A DNA stretch of 64,000 nt, from NCBI GenBank assembly GCA_964608175.1, contig CAZSMO010000008.1, forward strand, positions 10,291 to 74,290. Direction: 5' to 3'. The notes beneath the pieces are model-generated. The model worked only from the letters and a program-made list of their open reading frames with translations, was not told the DNA's origin and made no database searches. Of the stretch, positions 25,007 through 60,637 are shown piece after piece. This DNA comes from an uncultured Muribaculaceae bacterium. Lineage in GTDB: Bacteria > Bacteroidota > Bacteroidia > Bacteroidales > UBA932. The number at the start of each line of letters is the position of its first letter. The stretch's first letter is position 1. Made by a program: the position numbers and the translations under genes.

Positions 25007-25008
25007 GG

Positions 25009-41489: not shown

Positions 41490-41499
41490 ATCTCTCCGC

Positions 41500-42669
41500 T
41501 TAAAGCAGCTTCCGCATCTGCAAGTCAAACCGGTGAAATCTCTCAAACGACTCCGCATTGTACTTCCTGACAGAGTCGATATCAATGCCATAGGAACGGA
41601 ATATCTTATCAAGGCTACATCCGTGGCGGAACTCCTCCATCTCATAGCGTCTGACTGCGGGAAGGATTTCCTTACGAAGAAGACGCATGTCCAAATACAT
41701 TTCCCCACCATTAAACTTGTCCCAATAGGGATGAACTATATGCAGCAAACTATCCGCAAGGGCATTCGCACCGGCAATACCGTTTCCCGATGCGGTGAGT
41801 TGCGAGGGAATTTCATCGCCCGCTGCAAGCCATACCGGTACGGCATAGCAGCAGGGAGTATAGCCGATTGCAGTCCAAATGACGGACGAATTTGCTCTGT
41901 CTCCATCCCCTACTCCCTCTATTACAAGGGAAGAGATGGTGGTGGTACGCGGAATATAATCGAGGTCATATACCATATCCCCAGAGGCTTCCTTACCTGT
42001 CAAGGCATTGTAGAACGACCTTCCTGCCTTATCCAAAAGCCAGGCGGGGGAGAATCCGCTTTCCGCCTGCCTTGTCATCAAGGCACCTATGGTGGCGTAG
42101 CGTGCATAGCCCTGCCCCTTGCCATCCTGGCCGGAAAGAGAAAAATTAGTCCTGTACAGATACCCTCCTTCAGGCACATCATAGCGGGTATATCCCCCGT
42201 CCCAGGCCTCAAAATAGGCTGCTCCGCCATGTGCATCCATTACGGCGAAGTTTGCAGCAATCTCCCATTCCCCTTCCGAAAGCATCCTCTCAAAATCATC
42301 AACACTTTTGCATGAGGCTAGGGCAAGAGACATTACCCTGCCGGCACAGGTGTGCAGGCCGAGCGAATCGGGGCGGATATTGTAAGAGAGATTGTTGGCA
42401 ATCGCAAAGCCTGCATCATTGACTCCGGCATATGCGCTGAGGCGCAGGGTGTCATCTGAATTAAACACTGCTGTGTAGGAGTGGAATTCACTGCTGACAT
42501 GAGCAAGCACATTGTAAGTATCTGCCGCATCCCGCTGCTTCCAGAGCAGAGGTCTCCCCGTCCTGCTTGCTCCCGCTGAAACAATGGCCGTCGTACAGGC
42601 ATATGCCCTGACACAGACAACTGCGACAAAGCAGGTGCATACAGTTCTAATCAGTCCGGATATTCTCAT
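41500..42669 (-). CDS. Secreted Ntn-hydrolase (C45 / acyl-amidase-like)
   Basis: Signal peptide followed by the N-terminal nucleophile CTTAIV, GRPLLWKQRD and RTNFS; likely start 42669. Confidence 0.75.
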   Translation of the reverse strand: MRISGLIRTVCTCFVAVVCVRAYACTTAIVSAGASRTGRPLLWKQRDAADTYNVLAHVSSEFHSYTAVFNSDDTLRLSAYAGVNDAGFAIANNLSYNIRPDSLGLHTCAGRVMSLALASCKSVDDFERMLSEGEWEIAANFAVMDAHGGAAYFEAWDGGYTRYDVPEGGYLYRTNFSLSGQDGKGQGYARYATIGALMTRQAESGFSPAWLLDKAGRSFYNALTGKEASGDMVYDLDYIPRTTTISSLVIEGVGDGDRANSSVIWTAIGYTPCCYAVPVWLAAGDEIPSQLTASGNGIAGANALADSLLHIVHPYWDKFNGGEMYLDMRLLRKEILPAVRRYEMEEFRHGCSLDKIFRSYGIDIDSVRKYNAESFERFHRFDLQMRKLL

Positions 42670-42688
42670 TGACAACCTCAAATGACTA

Positions 42689-43882
42689 TCACTTGCGTAT
42701 CCTGTATCCCTTATAGGCATAATAGAAGATGAACAGATAGCAAGGCAGGCAAATCCAGTATGCAGCCTGATTGCCTATCACGTCTTTAAGGAAGCCGAAT
42801 ATCAGCGGGATAAGGGCTCCACCGCCAATGGAAGCTACCAAAAGCGAAGATCCCACCTTGGTAAAGCGTCCCAGATCCACAATCGCAAGGGGCCAGATTG
42901 CCGGATTCATAAGAGAGCAGGACAGACCAAGGAAAGCCACACACCACACGGAAAGCTTCGGCGGAGTAAGCACAATGAGCAGTGACCCCACGAGAGCAAC
43001 CCAGCAACAGATTCGAAGGGCTCTGACCTGGGACAAACACTTGGGAATGAGGATAATCCCAGCCACATAGCCGATTGCCATGCCCACCGAAGGCCAGATG
43101 GCGTAGGTCTGCGGATTTCGAAGTCCGAGCCAGGCCGCATAATCTACAACGGAAGAGAGAGCAAGAGTCTCAACCCCTGTGTAGAAAAAGAGGGCAAGTG
43201 CCCCAAGCACGAGATGAGGGAACTGCCATATTGATTTTTTTCCTGCCGCATAGGGGCAATCTTCCGGATCTGCCTCACCTGCGGCCTTAACCTCTTCCAA
43301 TGGGGCAAACAGAACAAGGATGCCGAGGGCAATGAAGATACAGATTATAATGATAAAAGGCTTCTGCGTATCGGCAAGAGTAGCATCTCCCAATTGTTTC
43401 CCTATCACTGCTGCAAGAAAGATGGGAGCCACAGCCCAAGCAAGAGAGTTGCAGATTCCCATTATACTCATCCTTCTGGCGGCACTGTCGATGGGTCCGA
43501 GAATGGTGACATAGGGATTTATAGCTGCCTGAAGGACCGTGTTTGCTACTCCGCTGAGAAAGGAAGCAAGGATAAAAAGAACGAGACTGCCGAGCTTTGC
43601 TGAAGGGATAAAAAGAAGGAACGCTATGGCGAACATGAAGAAAGACAAGGACATAGTTCGCTTATAACCAATCCGCCCGATTATTTTGGCAGCAGGGTAA
43701 CTGCATAGCAGGAACGCGCAGAAAGTAGAAGCCACAAGCAGATACGATTCCCCCGAAGAAATCGCAAGGGTAGACTGGAGCAAGGGAATCAGATAGGAAT
43801 TGATCCCCATTGCAAAGCCAACAGTGAAAAACATTACCCCGATACAAGCCAGGGGCAAGGCATACGATCTTCGTATCGTCAT
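42689..43882 (-). CDS. MFS sugar transporter (GluP/FucP/NagP-like)
   Basis: About 12 TM segments, LQAAINPYVTILGP and FFYTGVE; likely start MTIRRS at 43882. Confidence 0.87.
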   Translation of the reverse strand: MTIRRSYALPLACIGVMFFTVGFAMGINSYLIPLLQSTLAISSGESYLLVASTFCAFLLCSYPAAKIIGRIGYKRTMSLSFFMFAIAFLLFIPSAKLGSLVLFILASFLSGVANTVLQAAINPYVTILGPIDSAARRMSIMGICNSLAWAVAPIFLAAVIGKQLGDATLADTQKPFIIIICIFIALGILVLFAPLEEVKAAGEADPEDCPYAAGKKSIWQFPHLVLGALALFFYTGVETLALSSVVDYAAWLGLRNPQTYAIWPSVGMAIGYVAGIILIPKCLSQVRALRICCWVALVGSLLIVLTPPKLSVWCVAFLGLSCSLMNPAIWPLAIVDLGRFTKVGSSLLVASIGGGALIPLIFGFLKDVIGNQAAYWICLPCYLFIFYYAYKGYRIRK

Positions 43883-43908
43883 CTTATGCAGAATAACATC
43901 AGTCTTAC

Positions 43909-44967
43909 TCAAAAAGGAAGGGATGAATAGAGGCCGTTGAAAGTCTGCATACCCTTCCAAGTAGGAGTGCCGAAGGTGGCACTGTTGTTGGAGGCATCAC
44001 AAATCACCCACTGCCCATCAACATAAATCTCCGAGATGACATGGCCGATGACCCTTCCGCCGGAGAAATAGCACTGTCCGTGAATATACCTGGCAGGGAT
44101 TCCAGCTGCTCTTGACATCGCTACAATCGCATGCGAAAGGTCACAACAGTTGCCGCCAAGAGCCTCAATCGTACCTACAGCTCCTTTACGGGTATTGCTG
44201 TAGTCCTCCCACTCCCATTTGTCGCGGGCATATTCGAAAATGGCTACAGCCTTGTCGTGATTTGTGGTCAACCCCTCGGTTGCAGTCTGCATCGTGGACA
44301 CCACAAGCGGGTCGTCAATCGGGCAGTTGGAAGAGCTGCGCAGAAAATCCGACCACCAGGCGGAAACCTTGTCGGGGAGGACAAGGTTGTTCCTGTAGTA
44401 ATTCATGATTCTCGCCATGATCACAACGGCGGCTGGGAAAATCAGCTTTCCAACGTATTCTTCGCTGTAATTGTACTCCACAGTAGATTCACCGCTGAAG
44501 TCGCTTTTCCATGTCCTCGTGCCGAAATTGCAGTAATTGGGATAGGCATTGTGCTCTGCGGCATAGTCTTTCACCTTCCCTATCATCCACTTGACGGCAT
44601 CGAGAGAGATGGAATCCTGCTCAAAGGTATTGTTCTGCATCACGGAACCGCCGGCGTACTTGGGAATCTCGACCTCGCTCTGTTCCTGCCAGGTATCAGG
44701 GTAGGCTTCAATGAGTTCAAGCAATCCGACCGCAGCAGAGAAGCAGTCGGAACGGGTGTAGTTAATCCCTTCCACATTAACCATGGACGGCATCTCATCG
44801 GTCTTCACGAATTCATCGTAGGCATCGGAGATTGCCTGGAGAAATTCCCCGTTCCATGAAGTGGCGGTGAAGACTTCAGGCTCCTGCGGAGTTGGATTCT
44901 CGGAGCGGCAGGAGCAGCACAACAGCATAGAGCCAGCTGCAAGAGCAATAACAAGATTTTTATTCAT
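43909..44967 (-). CDS. Lipoprotein with pseudomurein-binding-repeat-like region and transglutaminase-like (Cys-His-Asp) peptidase domain
   Basis: GGNCCDLSH, AAGIPARYIHG, GHV and WVICDAS triad; N-terminal KVKDYAAEHNAYPNY and ARIMNYYRNNLVLPDKV resemble PMBR units; C-terminal YSSLPF. Confidence 0.8.
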   Translation of the reverse strand: MNKNLVIALAAGSMLLCCSCRSENPTPQEPEVFTATSWNGEFLQAISDAYDEFVKTDEMPSMVNVEGINYTRSDCFSAAVGLLELIEAYPDTWQEQSEVEIPKYAGGSVMQNNTFEQDSISLDAVKWMIGKVKDYAAEHNAYPNYCNFGTRTWKSDFSGESTVEYNYSEEYVGKLIFPAAVVIMARIMNYYRNNLVLPDKVSAWWSDFLRSSSNCPIDDPLVVSTMQTATEGLTTNHDKAVAIFEYARDKWEWEDYSNTRKGAVGTIEALGGNCCDLSHAIVAMSRAAGIPARYIHGQCYFSGGRVIGHVISEIYVDGQWVICDASNNSATFGTPTWKGMQTFNGLYSSLPF

Positions 44968-45071: not shown

Positions 45072-47957
45072 TTACAGAAGAGTAGCATCAATCTTGACAT
45101 CCGCAAGAGCGGTAGGAATATCGGAAGTAATGTTGTTATCAAGCATATACTTGAATGTCCTCGCAAGAATGAGATTGAAGCGCTCGGCGCAGCAGTAGCC
45201 GGAGTAGCCCTTCATGTTGTCAGTGAGGTTGTAGAAGTTGGCAACTCTTTTGCTATCGCCTGAATGTGAGGCAATCCTGTCAACCCACGTCTTGGAAAGG
45301 GTGTTAATCAGATTGTAGTCGGCCTGATTGGCTTCATAACCGTCAAGCTTGCAGGTATAAGGGTCGTTGCTCGGCTGACCTTCAACCCAGCCATTGGGTG
45401 CCCAGACATCAGTCCTGGCCTCGGGAGCGACATCACTTGTCTTGCCACCGGCTACAAGAGCCTGGAAGGCCTGCATGGCGATATCGTTCATGGCAGCCTT
45501 GCTGAGGGTAGTCCCATTGAAGGTGATTGTGAAATCATTGGGCACAATTCTGCCTTCCTGGGTGTAATCGGCTCCTGTAGGTTTGACGGAACCCTTGTTG
45601 CTCTCCCATTTGTCGAGATAAGTTACAAACTGCTTTGCAAAATCGGCAATGGTATTCTCACTCTTGGCAACATCCACACCGAAGAGGTCGGAGTTAAAGG
45701 TCTGATCTTCGGAAACCTCTGCGAGATTGTCGAGACTGTTGTCAAGAACATACTTAAAGACTCTTGCATAGGTGATGAGCCCGCGCTTTGCGGAGAACAT
45801 CCCATAGTAGTTGGTGATAGGACCGCGAGGATAACCCGACCCGTTACTGATTTGATCGTCTTTGTTGTTGGCCCAGTTCATGTTACGCTCCATCCAGTTG
45901 TCAAGGATGTCGAGTTTCACGGTATTGGCGAGGGCATGATCAGGATCTGCAGGATCTCCCAACATCAGAGGTCCGCCATTGCCGACTGTGGTGCTGTCTG
46001 TCCTGGTGTAACCGCCCTCGTTGTAAGGGAGCGAACCCCACGATGAGCCGTGAGTTGCAGGCAGAGCACTTGCAAGCGTGCCGGGGGCATCGAGCTTGGG
46101 AGTTGAACCTACTCCATATTTCTCGGTGTAGTTGCCATCGTAGCCGCGAAGGATTGCATAGCAGCGAAGAGCAAGCTCAAGCATGTCAGCGGTCGTATAC
46201 TCCTGCTCAAGAATGGTGCTCTTGGTGTCATCCGGCACATAGTGGGCATTCTCAACATTGTTGGCGGCATCGTAGTCGCTTCCACTGAAATTCAGTCCGG
46301 TAACCTTATTAATCGTGGTGGTATTAGCGGACCATATATCAATCAGCTTGACATACTGCTCAGCAAAATCGCGAATTGTAGCGACAGCCGCAGCCGACTG
46401 GGTCACCACGATGGTGACAGTGGTAGAACCGGCAGTCAGACCAACGTTCGCAATGCGCTCTGCACCGGTATTGACCTCGGCAGTAACGGTAATGACAGAA
46501 CCGCTTGCTGCTACGCCGGAAGCGGGAGAAACGGTAAGCCAAGCCTGATCGGAGCTTGCAGTCCAATCCTTGCCTGCATTGAAACGAATCTCCTGTGAGC
46601 CGCCATCTGCTATGATTGTGTACTCGGTCTTGCTGACTTCAAGGTCAGGAGCCTCAACTCCATAGAGGTCACAGGTAAAGCTGACATCCTTCACAGCCTC
46701 ATACACATTCTCGCTAATGTTGTTGTCGAGGATGTACTTGTAGAAGTTGGCAAGGGTGAGGAACATACGCATTGCAGACACATAACCGCGATAATTTCCT
46801 TCGGCAAGCTGATTGTCGGGATCGGTAGGATTGAAACCGAGGAAGTTTCCAATGTGTCCAAGTTGCTCGGCCCTCACGAGGAACCAGGCGGCATTGCGGA
46901 CGATGAACGAAGCATTGCATGGATTCTCAGCAGAAATGTTGATAGCTCCGAGTTCATCGGACTTCTCATACCAGGGATAGCTTCCCCAGGTAGCCCAGGC
47001 ATCAGCAGTAGGGATAGACTCCGAGAGAGCCTTTCCGCCACCGAGCGTGTGGTTGGGGGTATTGCGCTGCTCCTGTTTCACCGCAGAACCTTCCTTGGTG
47101 AGGATATCCAGCGCACCCTTTGCCGCCACAACGAAGCACTGTGCAGCATCGTAGGTCTGACCGGCCACGGTAATAGTGTGATAAGGCTGATACTGAGGGT
47201 CGTACTGATCCTTACCATCGGCATAGACACCGCCGCTCCAAGGGATAGGGACGAAGTGCACATTCTCCCAAGCTGTCCCGTTGTCCGTGCAGTGTGAGCC
47301 GTCTGCACTCACTGTACCAACGGTATTCTGCCAGATATCGAGATAGCCGACGAACTGGCGGGCAAAGCCCTTCAAAGTCGCCTCGGCAGACAGATAAGAA
47401 GTGGACACGGTGGCAGGGAGCTTCCCGTCGCTCTTGTACGCGGCAAGGGTTCTCAACATAGTGACAGTGGCCCTGTTGGTGGAGAAGGCGATGGCACCGC
47501 TGGTGCGCTGGAACACGGTCTGATTGGGAACCTGTCCGCGCTCGGCCATCTTGTCTATCAAAGAGTTTGCAATTCCGACAACACTCTCATCTCCTCCGCT
47601 GACAGCAATTTCTTCGGCATCATAACTATCCCTGTCCGGGTGATCGGCAGCCTTGTAATTGAGCACATCGACATCGCCGCCAGTCGTTCCCGCGCCGAGG
47701 TTGGAGACCACTTTGCAAAGAGCATATTGATACTGAGGAAGCGTAAGGGTAGTACTTCCAACAGTAACGGACTCCGGAATGGTGGTGGTGTTTTCCCATT
47801 CCGCATAAGCAGACGCAAATGCGTCAACAAGATCTGACTGGGAAAGAGTCGCGATGCTGTTGACATCGTCATTCTTGTCCTCTTTCTCCTTGGTGCAGGA
47901 GGACATAATCCCCACAAGAGCCAAGGCAGTCAGCAAAATTGACCAAAATTTTTTCAT
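45072..47957 (-). CDS. 961-aa surface lipoprotein: PMBR-like N-terminus, three internal repeats and a BACON domain
   Basis: Lipobox MSSC. Repeats start T(L/I)xxFAxQ(F/Y)V and end KYxLDN. BACON-like WTASSDQAWLTVSPASG. Confidence 0.7.
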   Translation of the reverse strand: MKKFWSILLTALALVGIMSSCTKEKEDKNDDVNSIATLSQSDLVDAFASAYAEWENTTTIPESVTVGSTTLTLPQYQYALCKVVSNLGAGTTGGDVDVLNYKAADHPDRDSYDAEEIAVSGGDESVVGIANSLIDKMAERGQVPNQTVFQRTSGAIAFSTNRATVTMLRTLAAYKSDGKLPATVSTSYLSAEATLKGFARQFVGYLDIWQNTVGTVSADGSHCTDNGTAWENVHFVPIPWSGGVYADGKDQYDPQYQPYHTITVAGQTYDAAQCFVVAAKGALDILTKEGSAVKQEQRNTPNHTLGGGKALSESIPTADAWATWGSYPWYEKSDELGAINISAENPCNASFIVRNAAWFLVRAEQLGHIGNFLGFNPTDPDNQLAEGNYRGYVSAMRMFLTLANFYKYILDNNISENVYEAVKDVSFTCDLYGVEAPDLEVSKTEYTIIADGGSQEIRFNAGKDWTASSDQAWLTVSPASGVAASGSVITVTAEVNTGAERIANVGLTAGSTTVTIVVTQSAAAVATIRDFAEQYVKLIDIWSANTTTINKVTGLNFSGSDYDAANNVENAHYVPDDTKSTILEQEYTTADMLELALRCYAILRGYDGNYTEKYGVGSTPKLDAPGTLASALPATHGSSWGSLPYNEGGYTRTDSTTVGNGGPLMLGDPADPDHALANTVKLDILDNWMERNMNWANNKDDQISNGSGYPRGPITNYYGMFSAKRGLITYARVFKYVLDNSLDNLAEVSEDQTFNSDLFGVDVAKSENTIADFAKQFVTYLDKWESNKGSVKPTGADYTQEGRIVPNDFTITFNGTTLSKAAMNDIAMQAFQALVAGGKTSDVAPEARTDVWAPNGWVEGQPSNDPYTCKLDGYEANQADYNLINTLSKTWVDRIASHSGDSKRVANFYNLTDNMKGYSGYCCAERFNLILARTFKYMLDNNITSDIPTALADVKIDATLL

Positions 47958-47986: not shown

Positions 47987-49351
47987 TTATTTACTGTTCC
48001 ACAAATCGCTCACATCGGGAAAATCTCCGAGCGGATAACGGAAAAGAACCACTCCAGAAGCATTGGAAGACGCAATGAGCTGACAGTCAGAAAGAAGTTC
48101 TTCCGTTGAGAGAGGAGTCACATTGTCGTCCCCCTGATAGGTCTGAATGCCGCTCCAGCATGGTTTTTTGTGGGTATTGGCGGCAAAATAATTGGACATC
48201 GACACCATCCAGCTGTTTCCTGCATTGTAGTTTCCTTTGTAAACCATTGGAATGAGAATGTCGAGATATTCGCTCATCATATCCTTGTCCTGCCCGTAGG
48301 CATAGGTCGTATTACGCTCCGGCATCATGGCAGCCGAGAGCACAATCCCCTCGTCATAGGCATCCACGGCCTCCCTAATCTGACGGCAGAACTCCGTCAC
48401 CGCCGTATAGTTATATATCCCCGCCTCGGGGTAGGCGTGCTTGGACGCAGTTCCAGGAAAACGGATGTAATCAAGATGCAGTCCCTTAACCCCGTAGTCT
48501 TCGAGGTAAGACTTTGCCCTCGCGATGATTCTGTCGAAAAGATCCTGTTTGAGAGTTTTGGAATCATCATCCACGGGGCAGACCCAGCCACCCTCATAGA
48601 AACACTGTACCCAGGCGTGGACCGTGATGTCATTCGCCTGCGCAGCCTCGATAAACTCCAGCGTTGTCTTACGGGCACTTTCATTAAAGGCAGCAGAATT
48701 GAGAAATACATGGTCGTAGCCCTTTGACTTCATCTCCTTCATCACAGCGCAGTCATTTTCAAGCCATTGCGCCCGGTGACTGCTCCAAAGCCAGATGCCG
48801 TTGGGTCTGGTCCCTTCGATAGTCATTACCTCGTTTTCCTTCCCCTTGCTGGAATAGGTCAGAGATTGCCACTGCCCTTCCCCATCGGGAATCCTCTGGT
48901 AAGAGCCTCTTGCAGAAAGAGCCACGGGGTCTGCAAAAGCAGTGCTTCTGGTAACTTCATCTATAGGCGCGCCGTCAGAGCTGAGAGCGAGCTTCAAGCT
49001 AAATTCACTGTCCGAAGCTATGCCGGTCGAAAGGCTCTCATCAGAAGTGGAAATGACAATGCGTTCGCCCTCACTTAAAGAAGTGCCCTCAGGAGCCGTC
49101 CACACATTTCTGCGATTGAAATACTGATCGGAAAGATACAGTCCAACTCCCGAAAGGTCCACAGAGGAAGATGACGTATTGAGCAATTCTACCCATGAAT
49201 CAGCATCCACAGTCTCATCGTGAGCCGAAATCTCATTGATAACAATCCCCTTGTACTTAGCGGCGGATTCCCCTTCGGCTGCATTTTTTCCGCAGGAGGC
49301 AAACGCAGCCAAAGCGAGCAGGGCAAGTATGGTATGATATGTCGTGTTCAT
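47987..49351 (-). CDS. Lipoprotein: lamin-tail-like domain plus TIM-barrel putative glycoside hydrolase
   Basis: IVINEI...DSWVELLN (LTD); GH-like VHAWVQCFY, GLHLDYIRFPG, YGQD, LDILIPMVYKGNY and GVVLFRY. Confidence 0.8.
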   Translation of the reverse strand: MNTTYHTILALLALAAFASCGKNAAEGESAAKYKGIVINEISAHDETVDADSWVELLNTSSSSVDLSGVGLYLSDQYFNRRNVWTAPEGTSLSEGERIVISTSDESLSTGIASDSEFSLKLALSSDGAPIDEVTRSTAFADPVALSARGSYQRIPDGEGQWQSLTYSSKGKENEVMTIEGTRPNGIWLWSSHRAQWLENDCAVMKEMKSKGYDHVFLNSAAFNESARKTTLEFIEAAQANDITVHAWVQCFYEGGWVCPVDDDSKTLKQDLFDRIIARAKSYLEDYGVKGLHLDYIRFPGTASKHAYPEAGIYNYTAVTEFCRQIREAVDAYDEGIVLSAAMMPERNTTYAYGQDKDMMSEYLDILIPMVYKGNYNAGNSWMVSMSNYFAANTHKKPCWSGIQTYQGDDNVTPLSTEELLSDCQLIASSNASGVVLFRYPLGDFPDVSDLWNSK

Positions 49352-49355
49352 GAGC

Positions 49356-50204
49356 CTAATTTATCTCGTGGGGTTGTTCTTTAAGCACTCCGGTCGAGAG
49401 AAGGTAATCTTCAGCCTCTGTAAGTCCGCCGCATTTCTTGATGGCAGTCTCGCAGGTAGCATAATCCAGGGTTGGATTGCGCTCCACCATGGTACGGGTC
49501 AGACGGTCAACCACCTTGTTGTTAATAAGGTGGGCGTGTACCATACGGTTACCCTGAACCCTGCCGAGACGGCACATGACGGTAGTGCTAATCATATCAC
49601 AGATGAGTTTCTGCGAAGTGCCGGACTTCATGCGGGTGGAGCCGGTGATAAACTCCGGTCCGGTAATGACCTCAACGGGGTAATCGGAATACCGGGAAAT
49701 TGGGGAATTGGGGTTATTGACAAATGAGCCGGTAGGGATTCCATGCTCTTTGCATGCTTTTAGCGCAGCCAGCACATAGGGAGTATTTCCGCTCGCAGAG
49801 ATTCCTACCACGATATCCTTTGGTGAAATGTGCTTTTCCTGCAAAGTCCTCCAACCTTCTTCGGTATCATCCTCAGCCTCTTCGAGATCCTGTACGAGAT
49901 TCTCTACCCCTCCTGCCAGCACGCACTGAAACATGTCGGGATCCACCCCGTAGGTATTAGGAATTTCGAGGATGTCGAGCACCGCCAGTTTGCCACCGGT
50001 CCCGCAACCGAGATAAAACATTCGTCCCCCGCCCCTTATCTGATGATCAATCGCGCAGACGAGCTTCTCAAGGTCAGGAAGGACCTTCTCGATAGCCAGA
50101 GGGACCTTCTTGTCCTCCTCATTGATTTCACGCAGCAGTTCCGCCACACTCTTCTTCTCCAAATTGTCGTGCAGAGAAGGCTGTTCAGTCATTCTTAATG
50201 CCAT
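49356..50204 (-). CDS. murQ: MurQ-like sugar-phosphate etherase (SIS domain), divergent
   Basis: EAEDD, GISASGNTPYV, TGPEFITGSTRMKSGTSQK; the canonical [15 protein letters not shown] is replaced by GCGTGGKLAVLDILE. Confidence 0.8.
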   Translation of the reverse strand: MALRMTEQPSLHDNLEKKSVAELLREINEEDKKVPLAIEKVLPDLEKLVCAIDHQIRGGGRMFYLGCGTGGKLAVLDILEIPNTYGVDPDMFQCVLAGGVENLVQDLEEAEDDTEEGWRTLQEKHISPKDIVVGISASGNTPYVLAALKACKEHGIPTGSFVNNPNSPISRYSDYPVEVITGPEFITGSTRMKSGTSQKLICDMISTTVMCRLGRVQGNRMVHAHLINNKVVDRLTRTMVERNPTLDYATCETAIKKCGGLTEAEDYLLSTGVLKEQPHEIN

Positions 50205-50216: not shown

Positions 50217-52064
50217 TTAATCAATCCATTTTTTTGTCTTCACATCCCCTATTCTCTTCCCGTCCCGAAAAGCCGCCGCGCTGACGACTTGCGAGCGGTT
50301 TATGGTGAAGGGAAGCTCATACACAGGAGACTGAGCCGTGGGTTCCGATCCATCGAGAGTATAATGTATCTGCGAATCAGGAGCGTCCACACTCATAGTT
50401 ACCACCTTGTCGTATTTCGTGTCGGGATTAAACTTAATGTAGGGAGCGAAGAAATTGCGGCAGTAAGCCACATGCAGGGCATCAAGCCGTTTAAGATGCC
50501 TCTCCAACCTTCTCGTGAAGCCGTCCCAGTCCTTGGGTGAAGTACTCCAGCCGGATTCCGCGATGGCGCACATCCTCGGCCAGGCCATATATTCGACCCT
50601 TGCAGGGGTTGGCATATATTCGGTCCAGACGCAGCCCTCAACGCCGATGATATAGCGTCTTTCTTCAGAAGTAAGCACAGCGGGCACAGGGTCGTAGTCA
50701 TAAACGGTCTTTAGCAGAGTGGGGCCATCCATGGCAAGGGGTTCACTGTCAGGGTCGCCCTGCCAGTAATCCAAATAATATTTGGGATAAGGAGCCATCA
50801 CGGCCTCATGGTGCATCTGCGCTGCCTTTATCCCGCCTTCCTCTCCAAGCCAGGACATCACCTTGGCATTGGGAGCGAGACCTCCCTGGAGGATTTCGTC
50901 CCAACCGATAATCTCATGCCCCTTGGAATTGATATACCGCTCCATCCTAGTGATGAACCAGCTCTGAAGCTCGTATTCATCCTTTAGGCCTAGCTTTCGG
51001 ATAAGGGCCTGACAATGCGGGCATTGTCTCCATGCCGCCTTGGGACACTCGTCCCCGCCAATGTGCACGAGTTTAGAGGGGAAGAGTTCAAAGACCTCAT
51101 CCATCACATTCTCAAGGAAGTGGAAAGTAGTGTCCTTAGGGCAGAAAACCTGCTTGAACACTCCCCATTTCGTGGCAGTCTCGTACACACTGTCAAGTCC
51201 ACAGCTCAGCTCGGGGTAGCAGGCAATTGCTGCAAGGGCGTGTCCGGGCATTTCGATTTCGGGAATTATGGTCACATATCTCTGTGCGGCATACTCCACA
51301 AGTTCCCTGACCTGCTCCTGGGTGTAATACCCGCCATAAGGCTCGCCGTCATAGATTCCGGATTTCAAGGACCCTATCACGGTCTCCTTACGCCACTGCC
51401 CCTTCTCCGTAAGAAGAGGGTAGCGTTTGATCTCGAGCCTCCAGCCCTGATCCTCCGTGAGATGCCAGTGAAAACGGTTCACCTTATGCAGAGCCATGAG
51501 GTCGATATATCTCTTGAGAAAGCCGATATCGTAGTAGTGCAGGCAGCAGTCGAGATGCATCCCCCTGTACTTAAAGCGGGGCGCATCATCAATGGAGCAG
51601 CACGGCACTTCCCAGCGCACTCCCCTCTGACGGCTGTCAGCGAAAATCTCAACGGGAAGCAGCTGCAGTAGGGTCTGGAGGGCGTAGAAAGCTCCAGCAG
51701 GGTCACCATAGTCTATCACTATCCGGTGTGGCTGGACATTAATTCCATAAGCCTCGGAAGGAAGGCCCGCATTCATGAAGAAAATCCCTTCATCTGCAGA
51801 GAGGTCATCCGTGAGAACAAGCGTAAATCCAGCCGCCTTTTCCAAATGGTCGTTGAGAAACTCTGCCGTACGGATAATGGTGGAATCCCACTCGTGCAAG
51901 ACGATGGGGACTTTCCGAGTGATGGCAAAGCTGCCCTCATCCAAGCGCACATGTGCAGGCTGCGGGATGACGCTCACTTCAAGCGGGGTCTTCGGGCTCG
52001 AAGCGCACCCTGCCGCAAGCACGGCGATGAAGGATATGAATATGTATCTTAAGCCTTTCACCAT
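50217..52064 (-). CDS. GH20 beta-N-acetylhexosaminidase with C-terminal chitobiase/FN3-like domain
   Basis: HWHLTEDQGWR, PEIEMPGH, HIGGDE, GWDE and IHYTLDGSEP. Confidence 0.94.
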   Translation of the reverse strand: MVKGLRYIFISFIAVLAAGCASSPKTPLEVSVIPQPAHVRLDEGSFAITRKVPIVLHEWDSTIIRTAEFLNDHLEKAAGFTLVLTDDLSADEGIFFMNAGLPSEAYGINVQPHRIVIDYGDPAGAFYALQTLLQLLPVEIFADSRQRGVRWEVPCCSIDDAPRFKYRGMHLDCCLHYYDIGFLKRYIDLMALHKVNRFHWHLTEDQGWRLEIKRYPLLTEKGQWRKETVIGSLKSGIYDGEPYGGYYTQEQVRELVEYAAQRYVTIIPEIEMPGHALAAIACYPELSCGLDSVYETATKWGVFKQVFCPKDTTFHFLENVMDEVFELFPSKLVHIGGDECPKAAWRQCPHCQALIRKLGLKDEYELQSWFITRMERYINSKGHEIIGWDEILQGGLAPNAKVMSWLGEEGGIKAAQMHHEAVMAPYPKYYLDYWQGDPDSEPLAMDGPTLLKTVYDYDPVPAVLTSEERRYIIGVEGCVWTEYMPTPARVEYMAWPRMCAIAESGWSTSPKDWDGFTRRLERHLKRLDALHVAYCRNFFAPYIKFNPDTKYDKVVTMSVDAPDSQIHYTLDGSEPTAQSPVYELPFTINRSQVVSAAAFRDGKRIGDVKTKKWID

Positions 52065-53887
52065 CAGAACTGTTTTTGTACCGCCTTCCCAACCGGCTTC
52101 CCACTGGGAGTGAATCCCTGGGCCCGGACAAGGGTCCCTGGAAGGGGAGTGAATACTTCAGTAAATACCGGGGACAAAGCTGTAGGAGCACTCCCATCGA
52201 GGGTATAATGGATTACAGCATCAGGATACGAGAGACGGAGATCGGCCTCATCCGGACGCTTCCTGGTAATGCTGTCGTAATTGAATATCACATTCCAGTA
52301 GGCACTGCTGTACCCCACTCCAAGGGCATCGAGTCTTTGGAAGGACTTTTCAAGACGGGAGCGGAAAGAATCCCAGTCCTTACTCTCGCGAGCCGTCCAG
52401 CCATCTTCGGCAAGGGCTATGGCGCGGGGAAATGCGAGATATTCCGCTCTATCGGAATTCTCACAATACTCACCCCAGATGCAGCCCTCAACCCCGATTA
52501 TATACTTTTCTGAAAGTTCCTGCAGAGAGTCCACACATGGGTAGTAGGAATATACCTTTTCGAGAGGGAGGAAGAGCGACTGGCTCTTGTGCTCGGTTTC
52601 GGGGTCTTCCTGATAGTAATCCAGGTAGCACCAACGGTTCGGAGCGAGGACTACCCTATTGCCGCGCCTGATACCCCGAGCTGCCGGGGCGTGTCCGCGA
52701 TAAGATTCGGCTATCATCCCAGGGACAGCTCCTCCATCGAGAATCTCATCCCACCCCATGACTGTCTTTCCATTGGCACTAAGGAAATTACCTATACGGT
52801 TCACAAAGAAAGTCTGCAAATCGTCATAACTGTCTATTCCGAGCACCGTCATCAGATTGCGGCAGTAGCTGCTGTTTTTCCATGCTGTCTTGGGACATTC
52901 GTCTCCTCCAATGTGGTAAACCGGTGAAGGGAAGAGTTCAAAAAGCTCCCTGAATACATCCTCCAGGAAAGTGAAAGTCGCGGCACTGGGGCAATACACA
53001 TCTTCCTTGACTCCCCAGCTCGTGGCTACGCTATAGGTCTTCGCAGTATCGCAGGAGAGTTCCGGGTAGGCGGCCAAAGCCGCAGTGGAATGTCCCGGGA
53101 GCTCAATCTCGGGGATAACAGTCACCATCCGGCGACGGGCATACTCCACGACCTCCCTCACATCATCTTGGGTATAATAGCCCTCAACTGGTTTTCCATC
53201 GGGATTTTCCCCGTGATAATCAGCGGTAAACGGCCTCTTGGAACCCACCTCGGTAAGACGGGGATATTTCTTAATCTCAATCCTCCAGCCCGAATCCTCG
53301 GTAAGATGCCAGTGAAAGATATTCTGCTTGTACCCTGACATCACATCGATGAACTTCAGAATGGTCTCCTTGGGGATAAAATATCTCCCGCAATCCAGCA
53401 TCAGCCCCCTATACTCAAATTGCGGAGCATCTTCGATATAGCAGCAGGCAGCCTTCCACTTCACTCCCCTGACCTTGGTCGGGGAGCAGATGGAGGCGGG
53501 GAAAAGTTGAAGCAGCGACTGCGCTCCATAAAATGCCCCGGCAGGAGCAGATGCCTCAATCAGGACCGCATCCCGACTGACTGTAAGGCGGTATTCTTCA
53601 TCCCCAAGTCCATCAACTCGCACAAAGGAGATACCTGCGCTCCCAGCGGTGTTCACCTTGATACGATAGCCGGTGGAGGCACTTACCCTTACAGCGAAAT
53701 CTTCCGCCACTTCGGCAAACAGCGGGTCTACAGAAATACCCGTCCTAGCTGTAAGGGTGAATTCCCCTTGCCTCTGCTCCAAAGACTTCGGGGCGGGGAT
53801 GATGTCATAGCGTCCCGGGGCAGCATGCAGAGCCGTCGCGAAGACAAGCGGCAGTATCACCGCGAAAAGTGTCCTAATCCGATTCAT
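52064..53887 (-). CDS. GH20 beta-N-acetylhexosaminidase (second paralog)
   Basis: HWHLTEDSGWR, PEIELPGH, HIGGDE and GWDE. Confidence 0.94.
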   Translation of the reverse strand: MNRIRTLFAVILPLVFATALHAAPGRYDIIPAPKSLEQRQGEFTLTARTGISVDPLFAEVAEDFAVRVSASTGYRIKVNTAGSAGISFVRVDGLGDEEYRLTVSRDAVLIEASAPAGAFYGAQSLLQLFPASICSPTKVRGVKWKAACCYIEDAPQFEYRGLMLDCGRYFIPKETILKFIDVMSGYKQNIFHWHLTEDSGWRIEIKKYPRLTEVGSKRPFTADYHGENPDGKPVEGYYTQDDVREVVEYARRRMVTVIPEIELPGHSTAALAAYPELSCDTAKTYSVATSWGVKEDVYCPSAATFTFLEDVFRELFELFPSPVYHIGGDECPKTAWKNSSYCRNLMTVLGIDSYDDLQTFFVNRIGNFLSANGKTVMGWDEILDGGAVPGMIAESYRGHAPAARGIRRGNRVVLAPNRWCYLDYYQEDPETEHKSQSLFLPLEKVYSYYPCVDSLQELSEKYIIGVEGCIWGEYCENSDRAEYLAFPRAIALAEDGWTARESKDWDSFRSRLEKSFQRLDALGVGYSSAYWNVIFNYDSITRKRPDEADLRLSYPDAVIHYTLDGSAPTALSPVFTEVFTPLPGTLVRAQGFTPSGKPVGKAVQKQF

Positions 53888-55269
53888 AACGAAGGTTCCT
53901 GCTGAATTGCATCGGCTATAGTTTTCTCCACACCATGCAGATAACTGTCCGGCATCGTTGAGGAAAGAGGATACGGGGCCTTGATATAGATATGCATCTG
54001 TTCAGTCTCATACTCATAGCCTTTATGTACCTGATAGGCCCGTTTCGAGGGGAGATAGGAATTTTGTCCGTTGGTGTAGCCGGCAAAGAAAATTGTCCTG
54101 TCAGGGAAGGCGGCACGGGTTTCCATCTGATACTCACAGAAAGGCTCTCCATCGGAGAAGAAGAAAAGCACCCCGTTGACATCAAGGGCATGGAGGTGAT
54201 AACGGAGTTTGGATGGGACTTCTCCATGTGTGAACCTGTCCAAAATCTCCTTCTCCCATCTTCTCACATCATCTCCAAACGAAGCCGACACCTTGGAGGC
54301 CGTAGCCGCAAGCGAATCAGCGTGGTGCATTACCGCCTCAGGGGTTATGGAGTCAATCTGATACGGCAAATCAACCGTCTCATTCACAAGGTTCAGATAG
54401 CCTGCGTCCGGGATTTTTCTAAAAGACATTCCGACAAGGGAATCCGCGAGAGACTTACCGCATTGCCCTGCATAAGTGCTGTCGCGAGGTCCGAGAACAG
54501 GATCCATATTGCCGGCAGCTCCAGTGAGTTGGAACACCTCCCCTCCCCAAGCCTTCGAAAGGTATCTTGCCGCAACTCCGGGATAGTCAGAGGACAGGGC
54601 GAGGCTCTTCGGTCCCATGCAGACAGGGTGACAGGCGAGGTTGACGATAGAGACTCTGACCCTTCCTTTTTGGAGAAATCTTGCCACATATACATCGTGG
54701 TCCACGGGGCCGCCCTTCTCGCAACGATTGGCATTGATGGAGGTATGCGCTTTACCAACTTCCATGGTAAAGGGAGCAAAGGCGCGCTCATCAGTAATGG
54801 CCTGCACAGCATTTGACACAACGGTCTCCACCATCCTAATCTTCCATGCACGGTTCGTTCCACCTTCCTGTATGGAAGGCCCGCCAGAGCGCGGTGCCGA
54901 ATGGGTGTGGATGCAATGCATCAGGATTCTGTCTTTGGGAAAGCCAGCCCTCTCGGAAATCATTGTCCTTATCGTGTCCGAAATTGCGGGAGAAAGTTCC
55001 ATGAGGTCATTTGAGATAAGGCATACCTGCTCTCCACCGGGCTCTTTCAGCACGAGACAGTGGGTATAGATTTTCTGATGTATTCCATCCGACAGCTTGT
55101 TTCGCGCCGCAAAACCAGCGAGGATAGTGTGCTCCTCGGGAGTTGTGGAAATGTCAGCCGAGCGGTAACTCATCTCAAGCGAGGGCTTCCCGCTGCAACT
55201 GAAAAGCCCGGTCAGCAGGGCGATACAGAGACAATATCCGATAAGTCTTTTCATCACTGAATGTTGCAA
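53884..55269 (-). CDS. Neutral/alkaline ceramidase-like amidohydrolase lipoprotein
   Basis: LAGFAAR, HCIHTHSAP, ACHPV, SSDYPG, GEPF and AGYTNG...YLP; lipobox LFSC. Confidence 0.72.
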   Translation of the reverse strand: MQHSVMKRLIGYCLCIALLTGLFSCSGKPSLEMSYRSADISTTPEEHTILAGFAARNKLSDGIHQKIYTHCLVLKEPGGEQVCLISNDLMELSPAISDTIRTMISERAGFPKDRILMHCIHTHSAPRSGGPSIQEGGTNRAWKIRMVETVVSNAVQAITDERAFAPFTMEVGKAHTSINANRCEKGGPVDHDVYVARFLQKGRVRVSIVNLACHPVCMGPKSLALSSDYPGVAARYLSKAWGGEVFQLTGAAGNMDPVLGPRDSTYAGQCGKSLADSLVGMSFRKIPDAGYLNLVNETVDLPYQIDSITPEAVMHHADSLAATASKVSASFGDDVRRWEKEILDRFTHGEVPSKLRYHLHALDVNGVLFFFSDGEPFCEYQMETRAAFPDRTIFFAGYTNGQNSYLPSKRAYQVHKGYEYETEQMHIYIKAPYPLSSTMPDSYLHGVEKTIADAIQQEPSL

Positions 55270-55285: not shown

Positions 55286-57292
55286 CTAGTATCCCGGATT
55301 CTGGACTATTGTGCCGCCTGCCTTTGAAATCTCATTTGCGGGAATCGGCATCAGGTAATTGGGCCATTCTCCGTCCACCTTGTAGAAATGCTTCTGCGTA
55401 GGAGGGACCGTCAGGCAGCAGTCACCATAGTCAACCCAATAGTCCTTGCCGAGCCAGTGGTACTTGATGCACGAGCCGTCAATTTCGACTGCCCCATCCG
55501 AATCATCATGTGCAGCTTGGAAAATGTCCTTGCCGTTAGCCTCTATATAGGTGGTTCGTTGTGAGCTATTTGGCCAATAGTAGCAGCTGTGAGTGAGTGC
55601 CTCATCATATGGGTGCGCGACCCTGTAGACGGTGTCGACCCCTACTCCGTTGGAATCCTGGAACACCATCGTTCTCATACCGGCAACGGGGATATTCTCA
55701 TAGAATGGAGCAGTTTTCCACCTGCGCACATCAAAATACCTGAAATACTCGAAAGCGAACTCAACCCTGCGCTCGTTCACCAACCTGTCCCAAAGGGATT
55801 CTCCGGATTCAGTAACTGCAGGCATCTGCACATCCTCACGGGCGCGTACCTTATTGATATATTCGCGGCAAAGGGCCTCATTGCCAGTCATATATGCGCA
55901 CTCGGCATAGTTGAGGTAAATCTCCGCAAGACGGAACCAAGGATATAGCACGCTCCCGGTCTGTGCCTCGGTAATGGGCTCGGTGGGGATATACCACTTC
56001 ATTAGATTGAGTCCGAGGTGATTGGTCGCATTCCACATGTGCTTGGACTTTGAGGAGAAGTCCGGCTCGGTCTTGCCTTCGGCAAAGTCATCCCTTGTCA
56101 CACCCTGATAATAGAGGGAGAGGTCCAGGACATTGTCGTGATAGCCGCTGTTGTCGGTATTGGGGTAGTTGCACCAGGGAGAGGCAATCGTCTTGTAGAA
56201 TCGGGGATCCCTGCCTTCGTAGGGTTTGGTTGGATCATATCCCGAACCTTCTTCGAATATCTTCTTCCCGTTTGCCATCTCATAGTCGATGACCATTGAC
56301 TGTGAGGGGAAAATTGCATCCCAGCCGTTGAAATATGTCACGCTGTAGAGAAGTTGGGCCTTCTTCGTGGAATTGTCATTGGCATCCGAATTGAGAATGA
56401 AATACTTGGCCCATATAATCTCTGGAGAGTCTTCGTCCTTCCAGAAACCATCATAAGTATCGTCTAACTGATATGCTCCATCTACATCTGCCCTGTCAAC
56501 CATCCGTTTGGACGCATTAAGGGCACGAGTCCATTTGTCCGCACTATACTGCCCGCGAAAGATATTCCCTTCGGGACGTGTCGGATCGTTGAATAGCGGG
56601 GATGCTGCTACAAGGGTAATACGGCTTCTGAGAGCCAGGGCGACATCCTTGTTGGCACGCCCTTGCACGGCATTCGCCTTGTCCGGAAGCAAACTCTCGG
56701 CCTGATCAAGGTCGGATAGAATGAAGTCTATACAGTCATCAAAAGTATCGCGGGTGGCATTGAAAGTATCCGAAAGCTTGTAAGCTTTGGAGACAATAGG
56801 AACTCCCCCATAGCGCTGTACGAGATTTGAGTATGCCCAAGCCCTCAGGAAATAAACTTCGCCCTTGAGCCGGCTGATGTCCTCGGTGGAAATCGAAGTA
56901 CCGTTCTCATCCACATACTCAAGAAAGTAATTCATCTTGTAGATGAACTCGTAAGTCCTGTTCCAGATATTCAGAATGGTTGTACGGGTGCTGTGGGCAG
57001 GGCCTCCTTCACTTTGGTACATAACATTGTCGGGGGTCATCGTTCCCGAAGCAATGTAACGCGTAGAAGTGCCTCCATAGCGGAAATACCCTTCATCAGT
57101 GATGCATGACAGATTTCCCTCCTGGAAGGGATCGGGAAGCACAGAGTACAAAGCATTGATATAGCTCTCCGCCAATGCCTCACTGTTGAACACATCCTTT
57201 TCGGAAAGTCTGTCAAGTGGCTGCTTGTCAAGCACATCGGTACAGGAGGCAAGGAGCACAAGAGTCGAAAGTATAGCTAATATCTTTTTCAT
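55286..57292 (-). CDS. RagB/SusD family lipoprotein
   Basis: Lipobox LASC, FRLAEIYLNYAE and NERRVEFAFEYFRYFDVRRW; likely start 57292. Confidence 0.95.
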   Translation of the reverse strand: MKKILAILSTLVLLASCTDVLDKQPLDRLSEKDVFNSEALAESYINALYSVLPDPFQEGNLSCITDEGYFRYGGTSTRYIASGTMTPDNVMYQSEGGPAHSTRTTILNIWNRTYEFIYKMNYFLEYVDENGTSISTEDISRLKGEVYFLRAWAYSNLVQRYGGVPIVSKAYKLSDTFNATRDTFDDCIDFILSDLDQAESLLPDKANAVQGRANKDVALALRSRITLVAASPLFNDPTRPEGNIFRGQYSADKWTRALNASKRMVDRADVDGAYQLDDTYDGFWKDEDSPEIIWAKYFILNSDANDNSTKKAQLLYSVTYFNGWDAIFPSQSMVIDYEMANGKKIFEEGSGYDPTKPYEGRDPRFYKTIASPWCNYPNTDNSGYHDNVLDLSLYYQGVTRDDFAEGKTEPDFSSKSKHMWNATNHLGLNLMKWYIPTEPITEAQTGSVLYPWFRLAEIYLNYAECAYMTGNEALCREYINKVRAREDVQMPAVTESGESLWDRLVNERRVEFAFEYFRYFDVRRWKTAPFYENIPVAGMRTMVFQDSNGVGVDTVYRVAHPYDEALTHSCYYWPNSSQRTTYIEANGKDIFQAAHDDSDGAVEIDGSCIKYHWLGKDYWVDYGDCCLTVPPTQKHFYKVDGEWPNYLMPIPANEISKAGGTIVQNPGY

Positions 57293-57299
57293 GGTGATT

Positions 57300-60200: not shown

Positions 60201-60392
60201 AGCATCGGACATGGCGGTTGCAGAGGAGCTTGTAGTCCCCTTTACATAAACCACTGCCCCGACCTGCGGCTCTCCGTCTTCAGCAGATGTGACCGTGCCT
60301 GTGACGGTGATAGTCTTGCCGCCCTGAGCTGACGCGACCGTAGAGCCCAGGATGAGCGCAAAGACAGTAAGGAACTTCCCGATAGTTTTCAT
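57300..60392 (-). CDS. SusC/RagA family TonB-dependent receptor
   Basis: [26 protein letters not shown] and C-terminal ...GVKLSF. A TATGTTTG promoter box lies at 60446-60453. Confidence 0.96.
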   Translation of the reverse strand: [1030 protein letters not shown]

Positions 60393-60599: not shown

Positions 60600-60637
60600 T
60601 GCTACCTGCCATGGCAGGTGGAGGTCTAAAATATATT

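Follow-up and report, generated by a model that had tools for sequence, protein, structure and literature searches.

We analyzed a window of 64,000 nucleotides, meaning the whole stretch of DNA under study, from an uncultured Muribaculaceae bacterium (contig CAZSMO010000008.1 of assembly GCA_964608175.1). The analysis centers on a gene, hereafter the target, which encodes a lipoprotein with a lamin-tail domain (LTD) followed by a (beta/alpha)8 barrel and lies within a polysaccharide utilization locus (PUL). We have good confidence that the target is a glycan-strand-cleaving enzyme of a cell-wall-directed PUL. Evenly balanced, in our judgement, is the narrower reading in which it would be an outer-membrane-anchored endo-glycanase for a cell-wall polymer rich in N-acetylhexosamines (HexNAc), most likely pseudomurein; here the activity, the endo-action, the surface exposure and the substrate are all predicted. 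Pseudomurein is the wall polymer of Methanobacteriales, composed of N-acetylglucosamine (GlcNAc) and N-acetyl-L-talosaminuronic acid.

The target gene and its protein

47987..49351, minus strand: LTD-barrel lipoprotein gene (target), an ATG-to-stop open reading frame (ORF) of 454 amino acids (aa), described from motifs, Pfam, homologues and an AlphaFold2 model
49292..49351, minus strand: signal peptide with lipobox, residues 1-20 (...AAFAS-C20), from alignment, model and sequence
48857..49261, minus strand: LTD, a beta-sandwich, residues ~31-165, from the PF00932 match and model strands 36-164
48026..48811, minus strand: (beta/alpha)8 barrel, putative glycanase domain, residues ~181-442, from the model, PF13200, Foldseek and identity to archaeal domains
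48470..48472, minus strand: Asp294 in HLDYIRF, C-terminal end of strand beta4, candidate catalytic carboxylate (codon checked by translation)
48317..48319, minus strand: Glu345 in MPE, just after strand beta5, candidate second catalytic carboxylate (codon checked by translation)

The translation of the minus-strand ORF holds all the motif strings that had been quoted in the initial annotation, namely GIWLW, HVFLN, VHAWVQCFYEGGWVCPV, GLHLDYIRFPGTA, SAAMMPE, YGQD, YLDILIPMVYKGNYNAGNSW, WSGIQTY and GVVLFRY. Pfam placed the LTD family (PF00932) on residues 31-134 (39.9 bits against a cutoff of 34.3, E 6.2e-10, profile positions 3-106 of 109) and DUF4015 (PF13200, "putative glycosyl hydrolase domain") on residues 284-379 (37.6 bits, cutoff 27), with the latter match covering only the middle third of its profile (positions 134-234 of 313). 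No NCBIfam family matched the target, and the sole phmmer match among PDB sequences was 4s1a ("uncharacterized protein", E 0.004), over the DYIRFP...PMVY core. No characterized relative was found in Pfam, NCBIfam or PDB sequences, and these searches, together with Foldseek identities of at most 14%, placed the target in no characterized CAZy glycoside hydrolase (GH) family. Lysozyme, glucosaminidase and lytic transglycosylase families likewise gave no Pfam, NCBIfam or PDB sequence match, and the polypeptide has no Pfam match to the pseudomurein-binding repeat (PMBR, PF09373), carrying the LTD instead.

A total of 219 homologues were retrieved at E<=1e-3. The 120 listed are 44-63% identical to the target (a range that leaves out the window's own protein), cover at least 92% of the query and are about 450 aa long, with a few longer; the named ones among them are from Bacteroidales. 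The target is a genuine, conserved gene rather than an ORF arising by chance. An alignment of 22 orthologue sequences (A1) has 68 invariant columns, among them H214, N218, H245, W247, Q249, H292, D294, Y295, R297, Y352, Q354, Y371, W399, Y405 and R438. Cys20 of the lipobox is also constant across the 22 orthologues, and in the target it is followed by acidic residues (GKNAAEGE). The lipoprotein is probably exposed at the cell surface. The window protein has the archaeal-type MVYKGNYNAGNSW in A1, at a site where most Bacteroidales orthologues read MIYRYSYGYSD.

Two unusual gene architectures were observed among relatives of the target. One metagenomic protein of 736 aa (P0011, 282+454) has a MurQ-type enzyme fused to a target orthologue, which argues for tight functional coupling but may be an assembly or gene-calling artefact. 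Another, of 1537 aa (P0121; L091 221-4834), has three tandem copies of the barrel and adjoins GH3 and GT4 genes on an 8.9-kb contig; its gene call disagrees with the query protein, which may reflect a different genetic code or a gene-calling problem.

A conserved polysaccharide utilization locus around the target

The target is surrounded by the following genes.

39022..39873, minus strand: MurK-family sugar kinase (PDB matches; conserved synteny)
40122..41711, minus strand: C1-like aminopeptidase (Pfam)
41500..42720, minus strand: AAT/C45-like hydrolase (Pfam)
42689..43960, minus strand: major facilitator superfamily (MFS) transporter (Pfam)
43909..44967, minus strand: transglutaminase-core lipoprotein, candidate Pei-like isopeptidase (PF01841, 4.6e-19)
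45072..47957, minus strand: 961-aa BACON lipoprotein, candidate surface glycan-binding protein (BACON, 1.4e-10)
49356..50204, minus strand: MurQ-type N-acetylmuramic acid 6-phosphate etherase with SIS domain (NCBIfam PRK05441)
50217..52064, minus strand: GH20 beta-N-acetylhexosaminidase (PF00728, 3.5e-118)
52064..53887, minus strand: second GH20 beta-N-acetylhexosaminidase (PF00728, 1.4e-108)
53884..55269, minus strand: lipoprotein with neutral-ceramidase-like N-terminal domain, candidate amidase (PF04734, 1.3e-10)
55286..57319, minus strand: SusD-like protein (Pfam SusD_RagB, 5.6e-46)
57300..60392, minus strand: SusC-like TonB-dependent transporter (TIGR04056, 871 bits)
60599..61402, plus strand: divergent DeoR-family regulator (PF00455, 7.9e-46; PF08220)

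By its position, the DeoR-family gene is likely the regulator of the locus. The GH20 enzymes match PDB entry 6q63 (E 5e-157), and no PDB sequence relative was found for the ceramidase-like lipoprotein. According to Pfam, none of the PUL proteins belongs to the Amidase_2/3, NlpC/P60, LD-carboxypeptidase or lysozyme families. Some of the longest-ORF calls overlap, by 212 nt between 40122-41711 and 41500-42720 and by 52 nt between 42689-43960 and 43909-44967. The Pfam match of the C1 peptidase starts at residue 110, and therefore these ORFs probably begin further downstream than called, with the overlaps an artefact of the longest-ORF rule.

The order of the PUL is kept in two metagenomic contigs (L001 and L002), both of which add a glutamate symporter and a second, LTD-less DUF4015 copy. 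In the first of these the ceramidase-like domain is fused to a GH20 in a protein of 987 aa (L001 4352-7315); this fusion argues for tight functional coupling, but it may also derive from assembly or gene calling. A scan of genome contigs identified 410 relatives of the target, of which the best 80 correspond to 74 loci. These best 80 came from Bacteroidales bins from the rumen of goat, yak, buffalo, deer and reindeer, from chicken caecum, from human gut and from digesters. Judging by gene content, the PUL is conserved, with the target as a core member, in about 70 Bacteroidales genomes of rumen, gut and digesters. All of its habitats (rumen, caecum, faeces and digester) are rich in Methanobacteriales. 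Eight loci (L003, L004, L006, L021, L024, L031, L034 and L049) present a typical Bacteroidales SusC/D locus under bin labels from outside Bacteroidales (Coprococcus, including "Coprococcus eutactus", Firmicutes, Faecalibacillus, Bulleidia, Anaerovoracaceae, Flexilinea and Lachnospiraceae), and these bins are probably mislabelled or contaminated.

The window proteins were also searched with tblastn against 76 loci, most of which keep the gene order of the PUL and in which many gaps coincide with contig ends. The target was found in all 76, followed by the BACON protein (68/76), MurQ (57/76), each GH20 and the transglutaminase-like protein (53/76 each), the MurK-family kinase (49/76), SusD (48/76), the MFS transporter (47/76) and the ceramidase-like protein (45/76). 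Half of the loci (38/76) encode a second barrel protein of about 300 aa, without LTD and 43% identical to the target barrel (L001 14463-15386; L002 16442-17314), and one of the two copies may act in endo and the other in exo fashion. The window has no second DUF4015 copy, and its 315-aa ORF at 37839-38786 is unrelated to the locus. With conserved SusC/D synteny and a lipoprotein signal with Cys20, the target has the genomic and signal features of a SusG-like surface endo-glycanase of a PUL. The initial annotation had proposed such a role, as the endo-glycanase of a SusC/D and GH20 locus, and this proposal fits both the lipoprotein signal and the fixed position of the gene in about 70 genomes, with endo-action inferred.

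Structure model and candidate active site

An AlphaFold2 model of the target, built on alignment A1, had a mean pLDDT of 91.4 and a pTM of 0.86. It consists of an N-terminal signal helix (residues 3-21), a beta-sandwich (36-164) and a barrel (184-439) whose strands (184-188, 214-217, 243-249, 290-294, 337-342, 365-370, 398-403 and 433-439) alternate with helices. All eight strand/helix pairs were modelled at pLDDT >90, and in this model the C-terminal domain is a complete (beta/alpha)8 barrel. The architecture of LTD plus putative TIM-barrel glycoside hydrolase, first proposed from the letters, was thus recovered by Pfam, the model and Foldseek alike.

The C-terminal ends of strands beta4 and beta5 (or beta7) are the usual sites of the catalytic carboxylates in the TIM-barrel fold. 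In the model Asp294 ends beta4 (290-294) and Glu345 comes after beta5 (337-342), so that the target has both the fold and the conserved carboxylates of the TIM-barrel GH superfamily, with catalysis itself putative. Asp294 is invariant in A1 and in a further alignment, A3, and at least 90% conserved in another, A2. Glu345 is at least 90% conserved in A2 and A3, and the column is E/D in A1, with Asp in some orthologues. Conserved polar and aromatic residues are found at the C-terminal strand ends of the barrel (A1 and model). Across the three alignments, which span Bacteroidales and archaea, little or no variation is seen at the candidate catalytic residues and at about 30 barrel positions, and because of this conservation we argue that the barrel is an active enzyme.

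Foldseek searches against the PDB matched many GH TIM barrels with probability 1.0, at identities never above 14%; no function can be transferred to the target by homology. Glucuronidases of GH2 ranked first for the two-domain model, with a TM-score of only 0.37 on the query and a root-mean-square deviation of ~15 Å; these matches were taken as an artefact because of the sandwich-plus-barrel arrangement, and barrel-only matches were used. The best barrel-only neighbours were the C-terminal domain of PgaB/BpsB (GH153, acting on poly-N-acetylglucosamine, PNAG), Clostridioides difficile Cwp19, GH164 and GH18 chitinases. The folds nearest to the barrel act mostly on N-acetylhexosamine polymers.

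Relatives of the barrel in Methanobacteriales

A HMMER search with the barrel alone (residues 175-454) over 1.84 billion cluster representatives gave 513 matches at E<=1e-3, of which 189 were at E<=1e-30. The best 150 of the 513 were of two kinds, lipoproteins of the Bacteroidales type and long, Asn/Thr-rich multidomain proteins. All named members of the second kind are from Methanobacteriales (Methanobrevibacter, Methanosphaera and Methanobacterium). They include a 1506-aa "transglutaminase domain-containing protein" of Methanobrevibacter sp. DSM 116169 (P0136, WP_409199467.1), proteins annotated as "putative glycoside hydrolase" from M. curvatus, M. filiformis and other Methanobrevibacter, and relatives from a Methanobacteriaceae archaeon, Methanobrevibacter sp., Methanosphaera stadtmanae, Methanobacterium sp. 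MB1 and M. oryzae. The target barrel is 35-44% identical to the archaeal domains over ~250-270 aa (E 1e-40 to 1e-53), and the archaeal motif string reads HLDYLRYPGTAYK, SAAVMPE (SAAxMPE), YYGQD, YLDVIVPMVYKGNYNAGTSW, VWxGLQSY (WxGLQSY) and LFRYG. By shared motif string and E-values below 1e-30, the target falls into one subfamily with the PMBR-associated barrels of Methanobacteriales.

A Pfam scan of 42 archaeal-type barrel proteins detected DUF4015 in 38 (best E 6.8e-23), Big_1 Ig-like domains in 25 (1.7e-38), PMBR in 24 (7.7e-65), Transglut_core in 16 (4.5e-26) and Peptidase_C71, the Pei endoisopeptidase family, in 7 (1.5e-05). A resemblance to methanogen PMBR proteins had been proposed, without database searches, when the sequence was first read; the HMMER relatives and their PMBR, transglutaminase and Pei domains bear it out, and the archaeal enrichment among homologues, whose absence was to count against the proposal, is present in the named Asn/Thr-rich proteins. 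In a 2024 survey of adhesin-like proteins from Methanobrevibacter smithii, a "putative glycosyl hydrolase domain" is listed for one protein, with no further discussion (PMC11532034).

As far as names exist, and as judged from sequence relatives, the barrel subfamily is confined to Bacteroidales and Methanobacteriales; among the named proteins of the best matches, no relative from another bacterial phylum was seen. This taxonomic reading rests on protein names, and the best 80 of the 410 matches in the genome-contig scan were all of the Bacteroidales type. A neighbour-joining tree was built from 197 barrel domains; the Bacteroidales form one block in it, with a Methanosphaera/Methanobacterium group to one side and a Methanobrevibacter group to the other, a topology that suggests a bacterial clade nested in archaeal diversity. 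We claim no direction of transfer because the tree is midpoint-rooted, without outgroup or support values.

Viral context of the archaeal barrel

On a methanogen provirus-like contig (31% GC, detected in many samples), a 397-aa protein with PMBR and DUF4015 (P0350) is encoded directly after a 444-aa transglutaminase-core protein. The pair is flanked by a gene for a 1876-aa tail protein (phrog_788) and by baseplate-wedge genes (phrog_6, 2.6e-38; phrog_120). The full gene order of this region (376-13900 in L077 and L078) runs from the 1876-aa tail protein through a 186-aa protein, the 444-aa Transglut_core protein, the 397-aa PMBR-DUF4015 protein and several small proteins to the baseplate wedge. 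The two adjacent proteins look like tail-associated wall-degrading enzymes of an archaeal virus, and no description of this pair was found in the archaeal virus papers checked.

A scan of IMG/VR identified 11 viral contigs that encode the barrel domain, six of them at 28-31% GC, and one has its DUF4015-PMBR gene immediately beside a phage integrase. A search for the tail genes of provirus L078 gave no match in these 11 contigs, and the viral association thus comes from two contexts. A virus of a pseudomurein-walled host would have use for a pseudomurein-cleaving enzyme and none for a murein-cleaving one. A tailed virus of such a host has to get through pseudomurein, and no other indirect evidence speaks as strongly for action of the archaeal branch of the family on this polymer.

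Neighboring proteins with affinity to methanogen wall modules

Judging from their sequences, two further products of the PUL, the transglutaminase-like and BACON proteins, also appear to go back to the wall toolkit of methanogens. Over 189 aa (BLASTP E 1e-35) the transglutaminase-like protein is 38% identical to the C-terminal PMBR and transglutaminase module of P0136, the same Methanobrevibacter protein that carries the barrel, and has a sub-threshold PMBR match (E 0.018). Run against 15 window proteins, a 42-column PMBR profile built from the archaeal proteins gave just two hits, one in the BACON protein at 20 bits and one in the transglutaminase-like protein at 11 bits. With hhalign, residues 43-84 of the BACON orthologue profile aligned to all 42 PMBR columns at a probability of 94%, and the transglutaminase-like orthologue profile gave three partial PMBR matches (86%, 59% and 48%). 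The BACON protein also has a weak BLAST match to the PMBR region of P0136. This lipoprotein contains three or four internal repeat modules, each ending in a motif like F-K-Y-(I/V/M)-L-D-N-(N/S). A tblastn search of the archaeal and viral loci with all PUL proteins recovered nothing in common besides the barrel and the transglutaminase module, and no further archaeal or viral link was found for the ceramidase-like, C45-like and C1-like proteins.

Proposed pathway and choice of substrate

In the pathway that we propose, the BACON/PMBR-like lipoprotein would bind wall fragments and the transglutaminase-core (Pei-like) lipoprotein would open the peptide cross-links. The LTD-barrel enzyme would then make the endo "first cut" in the glycan strand, with Asp294 and Glu345 as catalytic carboxylates. 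The resulting glycopeptides would be imported by SusC/D and trimmed by the two GH20s, the ceramidase-like amidase and the peptidases, and the MFS transporter, the MurK-type kinase and the MurQ-type enzyme would finish the catabolism of the sugars in the cytoplasm. As to the substrate, we hold pseudomurein about evenly poised, murein distinctly less probable, and the other readings, taken together, less probable again. We are more tentative, and incline slightly to doubt, over the full reading in which this is a dedicated pseudomurein utilization locus with a methanogen- and virus-related barrel, a Pei-like module and PMBR-like motifs, and the barrel is its glycan cutter.

Several observations weigh against pseudomurein. 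No activity has been measured for DUF4015 or for any member of the barrel subfamily, and its sole solved sequence relative, 4s1a, is itself "uncharacterized". The fusion to PMBR indicates where the archaeal proteins anchor, not necessarily what the barrel cuts, and at 35-44% identity the archaeal and bacterial clades need not have the same substrate specificity. Within the PUL, the PMBR-like motifs gave weak matches (11-20 bits, and hhalign on a motif of 42 columns). MurK and MurQ are the canonical route for N-acetylmuramic acid (MurNAc) from bacterial murein, and both MurQ and the MurK-family kinase are core genes of the PUL. These two are hard to explain with pseudomurein unless some other 3-O-substituted GlcNAc is acted on; pseudomurein does not contain MurNAc (PMC11915815), and therefore, speculatively, they must act on another such compound. 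Talosaminuronyl-(1->3)-GlcNAc is, like MurNAc, a 3-O-substituted GlcNAc, which makes it a chemically reasonable candidate by pure inference, and the MurK/MurQ pair could, speculatively, phosphorylate it and then split it by beta-elimination.

The leading alternative, which we regard as unlikely but serious, is that the barrel hydrolyzes the glycan strands of bacterial peptidoglycan (murein), as a muramidase, glucosaminidase or lytic transglycosylase, in a PUL that scavenges murein from dead cells. The GH20s would free GlcNAc, amidases and peptidases would strip the stem peptide, the MFS transporter would import MurNAc, the MurK-type kinase would phosphorylate it, and MurQ would convert the product to GlcNAc-6-P and D-lactate. 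In that case the relatives in methanogens would form a sister group of different or broader specificity. Each gene of the locus receives a role in this scheme without special pleading. The MurQ-type etherase scores 298 bits on NCBIfam PRK05441 (cutoff 168), matches PDB entries 4s12, 4lzj and 1nri (E ~1e-55 to 1e-57), is about 50% identical to solved MurQs and keeps both catalytic glutamates. The kinase matches 1zxo, 1zbs, 8ow9 ("putative novel MurNAc kinase"), 8oqk and 8ow7 (E 1e-54 to 1e-68), with the Tannerella forsythia MurK/K1058 family at E 1e-54 to 1e-57 and homologues in Bacteroides thetaiotaomicron and Porphyromonas gingivalis; Pfam barely detects it (BcrAD_BadFG, E 2e-4). Both genes are conserved in the PUL, MurQ even being fused to a target orthologue in P0011. 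The structural neighbor Cwp19 is a further point in favor of murein, as is the fusion of DUF4015 to YkyA, a partner of cortex peptidoglycan deacetylases in Firmicutes (PMC12700454). That pseudomurein is the substrate, as the initial annotation had put forward, is accordingly not shown: the MurQ etherase and the MurK-family kinase, which it had not weighed, argue for murein.

On the other side, the PUL lacks the native murein hydrolase families in the Pfam search (Amidase_2/3, NlpC/P60 and LD-carboxypeptidase), whereas three of its proteins have affinity to methanogen modules linked to PMBR, Pei or viruses. These shared modules are hard to explain with murein as substrate because bacteria have many native murein enzymes. 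Among named relatives, no other bacterial phylum was seen to have the barrel subfamily, and the murein stem peptide has D-amino acids, for which no dedicated peptidase is evident in the PUL.

A second alternative is that the barrel acts on another polymer of GlcNAc or N-acetylgalactosamine, such as chitin or chito-oligosaccharides, PNAG-type biofilm polysaccharide or host or fungal glycans, and that the similarity to methanogen proteins reflects no more than a common fold and ancestry. The structural neighbors PgaB/GH153, GH18 chitinases and GH164, weak Glyco_hydro_18 Pfam matches in some members of the barrel family and the two generic GH20 hexosaminidases of the locus are consistent with it. 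We nevertheless consider it improbable: it leaves MurQ, the MurK-type kinase, the transglutaminase-like protein, the C1 and C45 peptidases and the PMBR-like motifs unexplained, identity to characterized GHs is at most 14%, and in the archaeal and viral relatives the barrel comes joined to pseudomurein-binding repeats. Slightly more improbable still is that the target is no surface endo-enzyme but a periplasmic exo-glycosidase (for example one removing a uronic or muramic sugar beyond the GH20s) or an inactive binding protein, for although the second, LTD-less copy in 38 of the 76 loci could split the endo and exo tasks with the LTD form and Glu345 is Asp in some orthologues, the near-invariance of the catalytic candidates and about 30 barrel positions in Bacteroidales and archaea argues for an active enzyme, and the acidic stretch after the lipobox Cys and the neighboring BACON lipoprotein would fit the usual surface set of a PUL.

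Comparison with known systems

The closest counterparts of the target are the PMBR and DUF4015 proteins of Methanobacteriales (WP_409199467.1, those of M. filiformis and M. curvatus, and the provirus protein P0350), which have the same barrel subfamily and nearly the same motif string. These proteins combine Ig-like domains, PMBR and often transglutaminase or Pei in one chain, whereas the window protein has a bacterial lipoprotein signal and an LTD, and its partner functions are encoded by separate genes of the PUL. The target is related to DUF4015 (PF13200), a family without known activity, by a score above the gathering threshold and to 4S1A by the aligned DYIRFP...PMVY core. PeiW, PeiP and PeiR (Peptidase_C71 with PMBR) carry accessory repeats of the same type, and in archaeal proteins and proviruses they are found together with the barrel; they cleave the peptide cross-link, whereas the barrel would cleave the glycan.

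Among structural neighbors, Cwp19 of C. difficile is a cell-wall-anchored peptidoglycan lytic transglycosylase (GHL10/PF02638; 5OQ2, 5OQ3) with a Foldseek E of ~2e-9 and a TM-score of ~0.53 on the target. By analogy, it may serve as a precedent for a "GH-like" barrel that cuts wall glycan strands, but at 14% identity and in another Pfam family the same mechanism is unsupported. The C-terminal domain of PgaB/BpsB (GH153, a deacetylated PNAG (dPNAG) hydrolase; 6AU1, 4P7L) is the best barrel-only match (TM-score 0.52-0.57 on the target, E ~1e-9), at 8-12% identity; the substrate of PgaB is a beta-1,6-linked exopolysaccharide, also a HexNAc polymer, and its genomic context is different.

Like SusG-type endo-glycanases, the target is a lipoprotein encoded beside SusC/D, a binding protein, periplasmic exo-glycosidases and the locus's own regulator. 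It differs from them in having no assignable CAZy family and in that its substrate would be a cross-linked cell-wall glycopeptide, and peptidases are therefore part of the locus. The MurNAc salvage system of T. forsythia (MurK, MurQ and an AmpG-like MFS transporter) concerns the neighbors and not the target: the locus has close members of the MurK and MurQ families and an MFS transporter, but embedded in a SusC/D PUL with methanogen-related wall-lytic modules.

Elsewhere in the window, large ORFs (1075, 993, 508, 1207, 987 and 522 aa) at 1663-24000 look like further SusC/SusD-type loci, and a LacI regulator, a PfkB kinase and a sugar transporter are encoded at 23984-27164.

Novelty and implications

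To our knowledge, no enzyme that cuts the glycan backbone of pseudomurein has been described, and lysozyme does not cut this polymer. The pseudomurein-lytic enzymes described in the papers searched are Pei endoisopeptidases only, viral and autolytic (PMC12596118; PMC9800368). Searches of the literature on DUF4015, PF13200, pseudomurein, peptidoglycan PULs and bacterial attack on methanogens returned no description of a function for the barrel family or of the locus, and DUF4015 itself is mentioned in the searchable literature only as a fusion to YkyA (PMC12700454). PULs and "GH-like" TIM barrels are known kinds; what would be new is a PUL built around methanogen-type wall-lytic modules, and a candidate pseudomurein glycanase.

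If murein is the substrate, the target would still give DUF4015 its first function, within a complete and conserved peptidoglycan-foraging PUL. If, on the other hand, the reading with pseudomurein is true, the barrel subfamily would be the first known pseudomurein glycan hydrolase. It would close three gaps, namely the missing autolysin of pseudomurein-walled methanogens, the virion or lysis enzyme of methanogen viruses and the route of Bacteroidales to methanogen biomass. The subfamily would also supply new enzymes with which to lyse rumen methanogens, of interest for methane mitigation and DNA extraction. Bacteroidales of gut and rumen would feed on, or attack, the walls of Methanobacteriales, which would constitute a new trophic link between bacteria and archaea.

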